Shown: positions 1-19,369, counted from the stretch's first letter. The stretch is DNA of 64,000 nt from an uncultured bacterium (GCA_964551475.1 CAZKCI010000013.1:1017-65016); one strand, 5' to 3'. The notes: a model not told the origin generated them from the sequence alone. Program-made: numbers and translations.

Positions 1-54
1 GAGAGTTTCTCGCCTCAACCCACAACACAGGACCACAAATGGTGTGGGCGATCG

Positions 55-381
55 TTACACCAAGAGTTTGATCGCAAAGTTGACCACCTTGTCTACAGCC
101 TTTGCCGCCGCAGTCGCAATCTTGATTGCCTCGGCAACCTTGTTTAGATCCTTGAATGCGGCTTTAGCAACATTCTCCGCTTCACCTAACGACTGTATGG
201 CGGCCTTATAGTCCAGGGTCGTCTTGTCCAGTTGATCCAAGATGACCTGCTGCCAAAGTATGAACAGCGCATTGATCAGCTTCTGCAAGTCGATCTGTTC
301 CTGCGCCACCGTAGTGTTATTTCGAACCTTGTTGAGGACGTTGACAAGGTCACTAATGCCCGAGCGAATAGTCGTAGCCAT
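55..381 (-). CDS. hypothetical small all-helical protein (108 aa), low-GC island cargo
   Basis: ORF in the approx 50% GC block downstream of the RHS locus; Ala/Lys-rich helical sequence, no recognisable motif. Confidence 0.35.
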   Translation of the reverse strand: MATTIRSGISDLVNVLNKVRNNTTVAQEQIDLQKLINALFILWQQVILDQLDKTTLDYKAAIQSLGEAENVAKAAFKDLNKVAEAIKIATAAAKAVDKVVNFAIKLLV

Positions 382-426
382 AAGCCTCTCTCCTTTCGTC
401 GCGTCGTTATCGTTGCTGACCTAGTT

Positions 427-1386
427 TTACCTCTCCTGGAGGCTCTTGTAGAAGCCTTGCACCGACTTTACATATACTTCGAGTTCACCAATCCGCTTTG
501 CCATCTCCGCCGAGGAGAACTCGTTCGCCTCAATGGCCTCGCGCAAAGCAGAGTGGGCTTTTCCGACTGCGGATGCACCCTTACTAACGGCGGCGAAGAA
601 CGCCGGTGTATTGGCTTCAGCATCATAAAGCTGGCGAGCTCGGAGGAGCATCGAGTAGCGAACATCGAATGTAGAGTTCGGACGTAAACGTTCGATGTTG
701 TATGCCTGCTGGATCGATCCACGGCTGTTACTTATGGCTTCTTTGACAAAGCTAGCGAGTTCCGAGTCCTGGCCGAGGTCCGCCGCGATCAGCGCTGTCG
801 CTTTTTGTACAGCGGGGTCAGCTTTCGTGACCGTTGTTTTGATCGCATCGTGGCGCTTAGCCTCACTAATGACTTTGCCGATCGCATTAACAGCGGTCGC
901 GATGATTCCAATATCAGCGTCAGTGACTGGGAGGTCGTTGCCCGACGCTTTCTTGAAGGTATCTCGCAGGCCGATAAGTGCTCCGTCGAGATCTTTGGCC
1001 GCCGCGTCGATGTCGGTGTCGAAATCAGCCTCCGCCAACTGCTGCAGGGCGATCGAGTAGCTGGATAGCTGATCCAGAACGCGGAGACGAAGGGTTAATC
1101 GTTCGGCCTTTTCCGCTCCATTCTGAGCCCCACTGTCTCCGCTGAAAAGCCCTTTGAAGGTCGCATCCGTTGGCCCTATCTGGGGGTCGCTGGCCACATC
1201 GTAAAGTTTTCGCTCAACGCTCGCGCCAGTGGCTAGATCGAATGCCTTTCGAGCATGCTCACCGAGCGAAGAAGACGCCAATCCGAACTGTTTAACTTGG
1301 GTAAGGGATGTTGACGCACAGCCGACAAGGGCTACGAGTGACATTGCGGCGAGTGATGCTTCGATGACGCGTCTCACGCGTTTCAT
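427..1386 (-). CDS. hypothetical lipoprotein (319 aa)
   Basis: N-terminal signal peptide with lipobox-like LVGC (MKRVRRVIEASLAAMSLVALVGC); helical, no recognised domain. Confidence 0.5.
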   Translation of the reverse strand: MKRVRRVIEASLAAMSLVALVGCASTSLTQVKQFGLASSSLGEHARKAFDLATGASVERKLYDVASDPQIGPTDATFKGLFSGDSGAQNGAEKAERLTLRLRVLDQLSSYSIALQQLAEADFDTDIDAAAKDLDGALIGLRDTFKKASGNDLPVTDADIGIIATAVNAIGKVISEAKRHDAIKTTVTKADPAVQKATALIAADLGQDSELASFVKEAISNSRGSIQQAYNIERLRPNSTFDVRYSMLLRARQLYDAEANTPAFFAAVSKGASAVGKAHSALREAIEANEFSSAEMAKRIGELEVYVKSVQGFYKSLQER

Positions 1387-1620
1387 GGCATCTCCCTTCG
1401 TTAGTTAATAGCGAGCATGACGATCGTTTCATGCCGCATCCGCGCTGTGTGAAATGTATTTGTCTGGGCTCTTGTTTGAGCCTTCTAGCGATTTGCTATG
1501 ACGCGCTGTTTTGTATTCTTGTAGCTAGTGGTCAGTTATCAGCCTCACCTGTAGCATCACTAGATAGTGCATCACAGGATGAAGGCAGCCAAAGTCATAA
1601 ATATCGTTGTTCTATCCGAT

Positions 1621-16477: not shown

Positions 16478-17223
16478 ACGGGTGTGTCCCCAAGACCAAG
16501 GAACAAAAGCGACTTCAGATCACGCGCATCTCTCACAACTTCCCCCATGTGCGACCACGGTATCTGAAAACTTGCTCGATGTTACCACTCATTCAATATC
16601 GGTCAAGAGAAATCTCTCAAAATCCACAAATGCTCTATTCCATTGTAGTCCAGACTGTTGGCGAATATATCCGTGACAGCAATACATAGAAAATGCACAA
16701 AGATATCGGGGTTTTCATGGGATGACCCCAGACTGGGATATAGACCGAAGGCCGAACCAACGGAATGGCTCGTCGATCCTGACGGTTTTGTCGACTACGA
16801 GAGAATCCAAATCAAATATTTCCGTCTCACGTCGGGGATCTGAGTGAGCCAATCTCCCGCCGGCTGTTGCTTCCACGTCGGCGACGACGCTGCCTTCGAC
16901 GGGGAGTGGGACATTCACTCTCCAGGGCGACGATGTGGGTGGTCAAGGATCTCGGCCGGGGGGCTCTTCGGTCACTGCCGGGATTATCCGTTACAGGCTG
17001 ACTTCAACGAGAAGAGAGAAAACGATCCTCCGCTTTCATTTGATCCCTTGAGCCAGTGAAGGACAATGGGGGGGACTTTGGTTTACTTCAGCGGGGTTAC
17101 CGATATCCAGGAGACCCGAAAAACTCAGTCTGAATGGAAAGGAAGGGGAGCCTCCGGCATGGAGGCCTCCCTTTTATGTTGCCCATCTGTTGGTTGTATC
17201 AAACACTTCGTAAAACAGCCCTT

Positions 17224-17817
17224 TTACGAAATAGTTTCCAACGCCTTCCCCAGTTGGTCCATGTCCGGTTCAACGTAGATCGCAGTGGTCTCGATCTTGG
17301 AGTGCCCCATCAGTTTCTTGATCACCTGGATGGGAACCCCCTTCCTCCCCAGCTTGAAACCAAATGAGTGACGACAGGAATGGGGGTGAAATTTCCGTTC
17401 CAGACCGGTTTTCCCGGCATATCGGCTAACCAGGTACTGAACCGCACGGTCGGTGATTCGGTGGTTTACCCTTCCCTTTGCCGGCCTGCTGCAGAATAAC
17501 GGGGCTCTGGGGTGGATATCCTCACCATGGGTTGCCTTCCACACCAGGAAGGCCCGGATCTTCCACGTAAGCCCGTTTACAGAGCCGATCGGGAGTGTTC
17601 TCTCCTTCCTCCCCTTGCCCACGATGGTCAGGTAATCCTTGCCCGCTACATCCCCTACGTTCAATCCCGTCAGTTCCCCAAGACGGATGCCGGTGTCGAA
17701 CAAGAGGGTAAAGATCAGGATGTCCCTATCGTTCCCTCCAGACTTCACCGCTTGTCTAAACTGTTCCTCTTCCAGGCTGGTAAAATGCTTGATCTGGGTC
17801 TTTCTTATCGGATTCAT
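17224..17817 (-). CDS. small tyrosine site-specific recombinase (197 aa, catalytic domain only; FimB/FimE-like size)
   Basis: Catalytic-domain motifs (TGIRLGEL; HPHSCRHSF; LMGHSKIETTAIYV with catalytic Tyr); no N-terminal core-binding domain. Confidence 0.8.
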   Translation of the reverse strand: MNPIRKTQIKHFTSLEEEQFRQAVKSGGNDRDILIFTLLFDTGIRLGELTGLNVGDVAGKDYLTIVGKGRKERTLPIGSVNGLTWKIRAFLVWKATHGEDIHPRAPLFCSRPAKGRVNHRITDRAVQYLVSRYAGKTGLERKFHPHSCRHSFGFKLGRKGVPIQVIKKLMGHSKIETTAIYVEPDMDQLGKALETIS

Positions 17818-17917
17818 GCCAGATAGTGTGTTTATACAACAGACTGTCCTACAAGGAGTTGAAACTTGAACTCCAGATCGGAGGACGAGGTCCAGTTGTA
17901 ATGGTTATCAATATGTC

Positions 17918-19369
17918 ATGACCACGGGGGCGGGGAGCCCCGCGGCGCGGGCGGGGTTGATGGCGACCGCCTTCTCGCTCTCCTACGTGTTTAACCAGCC
18001 CCGCCACGCCTGGACGGCGATCGCCTTCTCGGCCCTCTGCCTGACCGTCATCAACCCCTTGGTTCTCTTCCAGGCCGGCTTCCAGCTCTCCTATCTCATC
18101 GTCCTGTCCATCATCGCCCTCTCTCCCGTTTTCGCTTCCGGGATGGTGTTCCTTCCCCCCTCTTTCCGTCTCTGGCTGGCCGTCCCCCTGGCCGCCCAGC
18201 TCGGCTCGCTGCCCCTGACCGCCCACTATTTCCAGTCCTTCTCGCCCCTGTCTCTCCTCGCCAACTTGCTGGTCATCCCCCTGGTCGGCGTCATCGTGAA
18301 CATGGGGTTCATCGCCCTGCTGGCGGGGCTGATCTCGCCCACGCTCGCCCTGCTCCTCAATTATCCGAACCGTGCCCTGCTCGCGCTCAACCTCGCGATC
18401 GTCTCCTCACTCTCCCGTCTCCCCGGCGCCTCCTTTTCCGCCTCTTTCGCCGATCCTTCGTTCGTTCTCGCCTGGTACCTGGGCCTCCTGGGACTCTCCC
18501 GCTGGAGATATTTCGCCGGACGCCGGAAGGTCGGCGCCGCCGCGGCGGCGGGGATTGTCCTCATCGCTTTGTCCGGGGGGTTGCTCCGCCGTCCCGCGGC
18601 GGGGATGGAAGCGGTCTTTTTCAGCGGCGAGAGCGGGGATATCGTCTTCGTCTCGCTCCCCGGAGGGAAGGGAATCCTGATCGCTCCCGACGCCGATCCT
18701 TTCCGGGAGGCCGACGGGATCCTGCGCCCCTTTTTCACCGAGCGCGGGATCAGGCGGCTCGACCTGCTCATCCTCACCCAGGCCAACACCGGACGGCTGG
18801 GCATGCTGAACGGCATCCTCCGCTTCGCCGCGGTGGACGAGATCTGGGATCATCCCTACGGAGCATCGGCGCTCTCCCATCCCGCCTTTCTGCGCCGCGT
18901 GCGGGAGGAGGGGATTCGCTATCGAAGACTGCGCGCGGGGGATCGGCTCCCGATCGGCGGGGCGGAAGTTTCCGTGCTCTGGCCGTCCGCCGAGAAACCG
19001 CCCGTTTTCACGAACGACCTGTCGCTCGTCTTTTCACTCACGTTCCGGAAGACCGCGTTCCTCTTCCCGGCGCAGGCGGGGAAGGCGGCGCAGGAGGAGA
19101 TGGTCCGCCGGCATCCCGATCTGAAAGCGGCTGTCCTGGCGGCGCCCGCGCGGGGAAGCCGCTCCCGGACGGACGAGATGTTTCTGAAGGCGGTATCGCC
19201 CCGTCTCGCCGTCCTCTCGCAGGGGAAGAAGTATTTCGGGAGATACCCCGCCGACTGCGGGGATTATCTCGCAAGACTCGGCGCGGATGTCCACCGGACG
19301 GGCGAGGAGGGGTGCGTCATCGTCCGGAGCGACGGGGAGAAGGTATGGGGGGAGAGAAATGATAAGTAG
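17918..19369 (+). CDS. comEC: ComEC/Rec2 C-terminal portion (second half of competence domain plus metallo-beta-lactamase domain); N-terminal half missing
   Basis: TGAGSPAARAGLMA...FQAGFQLSYL aligns to the mid ComEC competence domain; C-terminal MBL-like region; upstream reading frame closed within 16 codons (antisense to recombinase); conserved SGLH segment absent. Confidence 0.75.
   Translation: MTTGAGSPAARAGLMATAFSLSYVFNQPRHAWTAIAFSALCLTVINPLVLFQAGFQLSYLIVLSIIALSPVFASGMVFLPPSFRLWLAVPLAAQLGSLPLTAHYFQSFSPLSLLANLLVIPLVGVIVNMGFIALLAGLISPTLALLLNYPNRALLALNLAIVSSLSRLPGASFSASFADPSFVLAWYLGLLGLSRWRYFAGRRKVGAAAAAGIVLIALSGGLLRRPAAGMEAVFFSGESGDIVFVSLPGGKGILIAPDADPFREADGILRPFFTERGIRRLDLLILTQANTGRLGMLNGILRFAAVDEIWDHPYGASALSHPAFLRRVREEGIRYRRLRAGDRLPIGGAEVSVLWPSAEKPPVFTNDLSLVFSLTFRKTAFLFPAQAGKAAQEEMVRRHPDLKAAVLAAPARGSRSRTDEMFLKAVSPRLAVLSQGKKYFGRYPADCGDYLARLGADVHRTGEEGCVIVRSDGEKVWGERNDK

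Follow-up and report, generated by a model that had tools for sequence, protein, structure and literature searches.

A large serine recombinase element probably splits the DNA-uptake gene comEC in an uncultured bacterium related to Candidatus Auribacterota

Introduction

Mobile elements that split a host gene by means of a serine integrase, and whose excision restores the reading frame, are known from Listeria (A118 and phi10403S in comK) and from Bacillus (SPbeta in spsM and skin in sigK); A118, which sits in a competence gene, is of this serine type. Two prophages of Streptococcus pyogenes, phi1207.3 (Tn1207.3) and phi10394.4, integrate in comEC and have serine-family recombinases (PMC4260502), and the pneumococcal prophage phiIC1 inserts in comYC (comGC), disrupts this competence gene, and excises precisely (PMC4094930). 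Here we describe a comparable locus in a 64,000-nucleotide stretch of DNA from an uncultured bacterium (GCA_964551475.1, CAZKCI010000013.1:1017-65016; “the window”), in which a region of low GC content ends abruptly inside comEC, the gene of the DNA-uptake channel. With a probability of roughly 0.85, a large serine recombinase (LSR) has integrated in comEC an element of at least 48.5 kb whose right arm is positions 1–17,911 of the window and whose right-hand attachment site, attR, is positions 17,885–17,940. A preliminary description, made from the window alone, had already proposed an integrase-mediated insertion with A118 in comK as its precedent, and this precedent is still apt.

Results

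The window holds the 3′ part of comEC

The open reading frame (ORF) that borders the low-GC region encodes 483 residues, which make up the remainder of the Competence domain and the metallo-beta-lactamase-like region at the C-terminus: it covers positions 71–264 of 270 of Pfam Competence and 209–660 of 663 of TIGR00361, and it aligns to residues 306–788 of a 792-aa orthologue (P0003) with 74.5% identity. Homology to intact comEC starts at window position 17,912, in DNA and protein alike. The domain set that ComEC/Rec2 carries on one polypeptide (DUF4131, Competence, metallo-beta-lactamase-like) is thus incomplete here, DUF4131 and the first 70 Competence positions being carried by a separate 5′ fragment that lies elsewhere. 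Two details of the preliminary description hold exactly: the SGLH motif is missing from the window ORF (it is found in the 5′ fragment), and the comEC frame upstream of the ATG is closed 16 codons before it.

The closest relatives of the window ComEC, itself excluded, are 789–803 aa in length, share 72–76% identity with it, and have both DUF4131 and Competence, and full-length orthologues occupy the same syntenic locus. A related genome, L002, has SIR2, comEC (792 aa), PLD, HypF-C-like, HypC, MazG, and DnaA in this order; the same five genes lie 3′ of ComEC in the window, at 59–93% identity, while neither the N-terminal 305 ComEC residues nor SIR2 are encoded anywhere in its 64 kb. A search of the genome_contigs collection with a profile of the ComEC N-terminus gave three loci, in three reference genomes of the phylum, all with an intact comEC. 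Because the relatives are full-length, the synteny is conserved, and the 5′ part and SIR2 are both absent from the window, the window ORF is, judged by sequence and setting, a 5′-truncated comEC orthologue and not a short paralogue. The two objections that the preliminary description had raised against itself, a full-length ComEC encoded elsewhere or an equally short ComEC in genomes without the island, both fall away: no full-length paralogue was seen, and the relatives that lack the island have a long ComEC. A 458-aa ComEC (P0013) was considered as a second truncated copy and rejected, its ORF merely ending at a contig edge. Those relatives that carry a name put the organism close to Candidatus Auribacterota, within the PVC group.

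The composition changes sharply at this border. GC is 52.7% in positions 1–17,911 and 64.8% in the remainder of the window, and the step is located at about 17,850–17,950 at a resolution of 100 nt. Taken in 1-kb segments, the mean is 0.528 (standard deviation 0.048, range 0.417–0.604) from 1 to 17.9 kb and 0.648 (standard deviation 0.024, range 0.593–0.701) from 17.9 to 64 kb, so that the two ranges scarcely overlap. The minimum (40–42%) is reached at the C-terminal tip of the RHS gene and in the gene next to it (166 aa). Of the values given in the preliminary description, the step and that for the giant secreted-protein gene (57.3%) stand, while 57–60% for the RHS gene and 68% for the host side have to be lowered, to 50.8% and about 65%.

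The 5′ half of comEC lies at a partner junction

A profile built from the N-terminal 307 residues of four ComEC orthologues retrieved P0151, a 345-aa ORF that is ComEC-like until “...LIFFYV” and unrelated beyond. P0151 and its cluster-mate P0154 are both 345-aa ORFs with 307 genuine ComEC codons, both directly after SIR2, and are found on the JGI contig Ga0393266_0000036 (99,552 bp, sample 3300036982; P0154) and on a Logan contig. The order at this left-hand junction (attL) is SIR2, comEC codons 1–307, and then low-GC DNA with the gene of a 527-aa LSR on the opposite strand. GC falls from 0.67–0.71 to about 0.53, mirroring the step in the window, and the upstream host genes match those upstream of the intact comEC of L002 (SIR2 with 81%, a 984-aa protein with 76%). 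The missing 5′ half thus exists where the preliminary description had predicted it, beyond the window at the other end of the island, adjoining SIR2.

The left arm is also present on Ga0393267_0000214 (41,377 bp, sample 3300037485), with one mismatch in 12,331 nt relative to the copy in the sister sample, and sample 3300037485 in addition holds a 45,425-bp contig with the junction of the window at 100% identity. The window junction recurs on three or more contigs that were assembled independently (JGI 89,446 bp, JGI 45,425 bp, and NCBI/Logan 65,016 bp), the sources of attR being two JGI samples, Logan, and NCBI. P0151 has no match in genome_contigs, and an exact 28-mer of the window has none in metagenome_contigs, not even in the window's own contig, which means that this collection is without the samples in question.

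The two junctions fit as attachment sites

Both breaks in comEC are at the same nucleotide, in the codons for Tyr306–Val307, and the sole sequence common to the two junctions is TATGT. Aligned at the breakpoint (marked by a slash), the left-arm sequence L012 reads ...TTTTTCTATGT/GCGTCG, the window ...ATCAATATGT/CATGACC, and the intact gene ...CTCTACGT/CCTGATC; read over a longer distance, attL is ...CTTTTTCTATGT/GCGTCGTTTACAG, the intact orthologue ...CTGCCTCTACGT/CCTGATCACC, and the attR of the window ...GGTTATCAATATGT/CATGACCACG. The comparisons that the preliminary description had called for, with related genomes lacking the island and between the att sites of both ends, thus yield an uninterrupted comEC and a common core of 5 nt. 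By this alignment, the crossover must lie within the TATGT block.

When the host sides of the two junctions are joined in silico, an in-frame ComEC of 790 aa with a single terminal stop results, and its alignment with eight orthologues is free of gaps across the joint. The two halves behave as parts of one gene: the ranking of orthologues by identity (P0002 > P0003 > P0004) is identical for both, and the ratio of N-half to C-half identity resembles that among the orthologues. Where the orthologues are invariant, the rejoined protein differs from them at 0 of 65 positions in the N half and 3 of 118 in the C half, and in a leave-one-out comparison no intact orthologue outdoes it; both halves are intact, with no excess change at conserved positions. 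Insertion in a coding sequence, intact halves, and in-frame rejoining, as expected of a gene-splitting element, are found at this locus, and the site-specific, integrase-mediated insertion into comEC proposed earlier is borne out by the full-length syntenic orthologues, the same-nucleotide break, and the in-frame rejoining.

Joining the element sides instead yields an attP whose outer arms, GTCCAGTTGTAA...TTACAGCTGGAC, are inverted repeats that match in 11 of 12 positions; the first of these lies in the P arm of attR, at 17,890–17,901. The reconstructed attB contains CTTTTTCTATGTCATGACCACG and the reconstructed attP GGTTATCAATATGTGCGTCGTTTACAG, each candidate site being about 56 bp long. Dyad symmetry reaches 19/28 in attB and 16/28 in attP, and the best centre is in both the same TA within TATGT; background positions score that high with frequencies of 2e-4 (attB) and 5.6e-4 (attP). 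The hybrid sites attL and attR, as found, have a symmetry of 6/28, which is the background level, and an unoccupied orthologous comEC also has a local symmetry peak, of 14/28, at the corresponding site. Short symmetric attP and attB with little mutual identity, together with asymmetric hybrids, form the site pattern of serine integrases. Since the symmetry appears only after in-silico recombination, it is an independent line of evidence that the two junctions are partners, and it is also what the att sites of a serine integrase predict.

A large serine recombinase gene spans attL

The LSR gene is located outside the window, on the left-arm sequences L012, L013 (10893–12476), and L021, where it adjoins attL so closely that its ORF crosses the junction. 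Its 527-aa product has the domain layout of an LSR, with a catalytic domain of the resolvase type at the N-terminus, a recombinase domain, and a C-terminal part of the zinc-ribbon/coiled-coil type (Pfam Resolvase 1.1e-42, Recombinase 3.1e-09, Zn_ribbon_recom 3.4e-08), an N-terminal AIYARVSTDEQ motif, and a match to the PHROG 95 integrase family (1.2e-113). The attP lies inside the 3′ end of the gene: the excised circle, as reconstructed in silico, would encode 546 aa, and integration exchanges the last 27 of these residues for 8 that are encoded antisense to comEC, giving the 527 aa of the integrated form. That the integrase indicated by the att-site architecture would be this LSR, at the far end of the element, is supported by these features.

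Its best phage matches are the serine integrases of pneumococcal prophages, with 30% identity over 91% of its length, and all phage matches are below 60% identity. In metagenome_contigs the LSR has relatives at 25% identity only, and in IMG/VR neither the LSR nor the primase encoded near it has any.

The tyrosine recombinase at the edge of the window is probably a passenger

The recombinase next to the junction in the window is a tyrosine recombinase of 197 aa (Phage_integrase, 1.3e-29) in which the catalytic residues R, K, HxxR, H, and Y are all present, and which has no detectable N-terminal core-binding (SAM-like) or arm-binding domain of the sort that phage integrases have. Its homologues at 66–76% identity are all about 194–198 aa long, and the nearest clusters of a 50%-identity clustering are of 185–202 aa. 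The family, which includes P0173–P0192, is small, with only 11 clusters found at E ≤ 1e-30 in an exhaustive search of 1.8 billion representatives. The homologues lie between TrkA and a two-component system/response regulator (L004, L005) or among regulators and secreted proteins (L007), with no comEC nearby and not at an island border beside a conserved target. Homology in the flanks of these loci ends about 50 nt past the stop codon, and the GC profiles around them were uninformative. The preliminary description had implied that this recombinase, at the 17.9-kb edge, is the integrase; it has a catalytic domain only and chromosomal homologues, and the role probably goes instead to the LSR at the opposite end. 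From its sequence relatives, it is probably a passenger and not the integrase of the element, and possibly it resolves multimers of the excised form.

Two other identities were tried and rejected: a truncated integrase, because the close homologues are all about 195 aa, and an invertase of a nearby promoter, for which there are no convincing inverted repeats (the best pair has an arm inside the recombinase gene itself). No convincing invertible segment was found beside the gene. It is similar to FimB/FimE in its size of about 200 aa and in a weak match to the NCBIfam tyrosine-type DNA invertases (7.8e-10), but it matches the catalytic halves of XerA/XerC far better (1e-33), and no nearby segment has convincing inverted repeats at its flanks. 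At one of the homologous loci (L007), a 94-nt copy (72%) of the 3′ end of the gene occurs 1.9 kb downstream in direct orientation (11247–11339 vs 9345–9437), so that the pair brackets a beta-helix gene; it is maybe a recombination site or a remnant.

Extent and contents of the element

The island runs beyond the start of the window, as had been noted, by at least 1,002 nt (upstream extension in L010), and the right arm, composed of this extension and the window part, amounts to 18.9 kb. The left arm was read for 29.6 kb from attL, with GC of 33–66% throughout. The arms show no overlap, and the element is therefore at least 48.5 kb. Starting from attL, the left arm encodes the LSR, a Gp2.5-like ssDNA-binding/annealing protein, a 938-aa primase, an HTH_17 protein, and a PD-(D/E)XK exonuclease, followed by a TIR/ThsB-like protein, a MoxR-like ATPase with its DUF2201 partner, a HEC-01 A/B pair, and an SBBP/FG-GAP protein. 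The phage-type genes in the 48.5 kb read are those for replication and recombination only.

The features of the window are listed in Table 1. In the RHS toxin, NPINLVDPLGL at residues 1786–1796 marks the demarcation, after which a tip of about 250 aa without a family match follows. The 288-aa secreted protein has repeats similar to those found at the C-termini of chromosomal proteins in the related genome. A repeat domain of about 40 residues with the motif “DIAVFRPSTGLW” occurs at window positions 2157–3023, at 13515–14390 in the giant protein, and at 60708–61637 in an ORF on the host side, as well as in chromosomal proteins of the related genome; the cargo of the island is thus built of domains typical of the lineage. 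This resemblance between cargo repeats and the chromosomal proteins of the lineage suggests, at the level of sequence, that the element may circulate within the phylum.

A tRNA scan of the whole window found none, so that the island is not a tRNA-targeting one, and an Rfam search of positions 1–24 kb gave no family. A search of the window for long repeats, direct or inverted, that might delimit the island turned up only intragenic ones and the host REP-like repeats described below.

Table 1. Features of the window around the comEC junction (positions counted from the first nucleotide of the window).
Feature	Position	Strand	Basis or remarks
Right arm of the integrated element (probable)	1-17911	.	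GC statistics; homology to intact comEC begins at 17,912; extension in L010
108-aa hypothetical protein (cargo)	55-381	-	Called gene on JGI contigs; no Pfam/PHROG match
319-aa hypothetical protein, lipoprotein-like N-terminus (LVALVGCAST)	427-1386	-	No family match
288-aa secreted repeat protein	2157-3023	-	Weak FG-GAP match; tblastn 34-45% to L002 p597 and p991
166-aa putative immunity protein (from position only)	3229-3729	-	Directly after the RHS tip; 40% GC; no family match
RHS polymorphic-toxin gene, 2,046 aa	3735-9875	-	Pfam RHS_repeat 6.6e-66; signal peptide
Secreted 2,163-aa protein: beta-helix/NosD, TSP3, four LTD, TIG	9882-16373	-	Pfam; signal-like N-terminus
850-nt stretch without convincing ORF or RNA family	16374-17223	.	
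197-aa tyrosine recombinase, catalytic domain only	17224-17817	-	Residues 16-186 match positions 7-170 of 172 of Pfam Phage_integrase
Last 27 LSR residues of the circularised form (predicted)	17832-17916	-	attP reconstruction
attR (probable)	17885-17940	.	P arm 17,885-17,911; core TATGT 17,912-17,916; B′ arm 17,917-17,940
comEC 3′ fragment	17918-19369	+	Codons 308-790 of the reconstructed gene; ORF intact
Host genes PLD-like, HypF-C-like, HypC, MazG, DnaA	19412-24125	+	Order as downstream of intact comEC in L002

Weighing the explanations

Several observations weigh against an LSR element in comEC, or at least against its details. The two arms are not joined on one sequence. All assemblies of the right arm end about 1 kb left of the window start, and what the middle of the element contains, how long it really is, and that it is one element and not a composite are inferred from the arms. 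No capsid, portal, terminase, tail, lysis, or conjugation genes were found in the 48.5 kb read, and no recombination directionality factor was recognised among the element genes read; by its family, an 81-aa HTH_17 protein would be a candidate for this factor. Neither of the reaction partners was found as such in the collections searched: an empty attB was not encountered, the protein database having no full-length ComEC above 76% identity, nor was a circular attP, whose junction 28-mer is absent from IMG/VR. Finally, characterised serine integrases use a non-palindromic central dinucleotide (2 bp), and the symmetry centre here is a palindromic TA, so that the true crossover may be at the adjacent TG or GT.

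Of the other explanations, the most serious, though a quite unlikely one, is that the left and right arms belong to two elements, either in a tandem array at one attB or as alternative occupants of the site in different cells. The arms are unjoined in every assembly, their GC varies from 33 to 66%, and the right-arm contigs share one stop: the JGI and Logan assemblies end some 0.9–1.0 kb left of the window start (L010 10328–11383), the JGI 45-kb contig in a 5′-truncated patatin-like gene, its C-terminal part kept, beside a tandem GTGGCCCCTTTTGAYCCGACC motif, which suggests a repeat or a strain-variable joint. Yet the P and P′ arms form a pair of inverted repeats, which is what a single attP should show, and there is one attL and one attR contig per sample; in a tandem array, moreover, LSR att sites would still form the outer junctions and the main conclusion would stand. 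An insertion by the 197-aa tyrosine recombinase is suggested by its place inside the island, 95 nt from the junction, and by its complete set of catalytic residues. We consider this very improbable, however, as it has no N-terminal binding domain and its same-length homologues sit among chromosomal genes with no island or comEC near, while attP and attB have no more than 5 identical nt in common and both show dyad symmetry around one centre, in the manner of serine-integrase sites, and it is the LSR gene that spans attL.

There are also two further explanations. One is that comEC was truncated by a deletion or rearrangement, with loss of its 5′ half, and that the island merely abuts a dead gene. 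The 5′ part of comEC and SIR2 are indeed nowhere in the 64 kb of the window, but the 5′ half is there in the same and the sister sample, next to SIR2 and broken at the same nucleotide, and the halves are intact and rejoin in frame, which leaves this account hardly credible. The other, a chimera made in metagenome assembly from one genome of about 53% GC and another of about 65%, would agree with the sharpness of the compositional change (within about 100 nt); against at least three independent contigs with the junction, an existing partner junction, and sites that become symmetric only after in-silico recombination, its chances are close to nil.

The host flank

On the host side, the spacer upstream of dnaA (22788–24125, +) contains a cluster of three DnaA boxes, two of them perfect and the other with one mismatch (TTATCCACA), on the minus strand at 22461–22469, 22472–22480, and 22744–22752; this cluster places the element about 4.5 kb from a probable replication origin or dnaA promoter region. 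The HypF-like gene (20418–21719) has the Kae1-like C-terminal domains only (HypF_C, HypF_C_2), without the acylphosphatase and zinc-finger parts, and the short form is conserved in the related genome. A GC-rich repeat of about 50 nt (GTGGGAGGGGCGTC..CGCCCCGATCC...GGATCGCGGCGGG), REP-like in its look, occurs in both orientations in host intergenic regions (33036–33089, 39041–39090, 57852–57903, and 57986–58050). Host intergenic spacers also hold long palindromes of low complexity that are nearly perfect and consist of short words repeated many times (for example GATCTGAAATCT and GGTTCA/TGAACC), at 35943–36019, 42138–42352, 52941–53049, and 63213–63269.

Discussion

We propose that the LSR inserted the element at codons 306–307 (Tyr-Val) of comEC, in a bacterium related to Candidatus Auribacterota, with strand exchange inside the 5-nt TATGT that attP and attB have in common. 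The insertion would split comEC into a 307-codon 5′ part beside SIR2 and the 483-codon 3′ part in the window, and in the integrated state the cell should lack the ComEC DNA-uptake channel. Precise excision by the LSR would restore the 790-aa ORF, as it does in silico. The element would bring along a phage-like replication/recombination module, defence-type genes, an RHS toxin with its putative immunity gene, and large secreted repeat proteins.

A more far-reaching, and in our opinion unlikely, idea is that the element is a reversible switch, in which regulated excision by the LSR would restore comEC and hence natural transformation, and in which the exchange of the C-terminal tail (8 vs 27 residues) would couple the activity or stability of the LSR to the state of integration. 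The idea is allowed by the sequence because both comEC halves are intact and the LSR ORF crosses the att site.

Documented at both of its junctions, the locus is a clear case of a mobile element that would disable the gene of a DNA-uptake channel, in a candidate phylum known from metagenome-assembled genomes alone. It is in line with the idea that competence genes are targets of mobile elements, which thereby block transformation; a rationale proposed for this is that the elements might otherwise be removed by transformation. The cargo of such an element seems to include an RHS toxin and giant secreted proteins. The LSR is new and comes with sequence-defined candidates for attP and attB, and pairs of this kind are sought as tools for genome engineering. 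In annotation, the ComEC of 483 aa ought to be treated as one half of a split gene.

Among the known gene-splitting elements, regulated excision has been shown experimentally for A118/phi10403S, SPbeta, and skin, in comparison with which the present locus offers an in-silico restoration and undecayed gene halves only. Closest in target are phi1207.3 and phi10394.4: they too are elements of about 50 kb within the coding sequence of comEC, integrated site-specifically at a short core; they encode serine-family recombinases and carry cargo genes (PMC4260502). They differ from the present element in their hosts (Bacillota, as opposed to Candidatus Auribacterota), in the core (GA there, TATGT here), and in having phage structural and lysis genes, none of which were seen in the 48.5 kb read here. 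Their cargo is mef(A)/msr(D), that of the present element the RHS toxin, the giant secreted protein, TIR, and HEC-01. Closest in the recombinase are phiIC1 and its relatives, which provide the best phage matches to the LSR and likewise have a competence gene as their target, although this is the pilin gene comYC and not that of the channel, comEC; as the identity is so low, the common preference for competence genes may be a coincidence. No paper that links comEC with a large serine recombinase was found in a search of the literature. The present case adds to a known kind of event one that was previously undescribed in this phylum.

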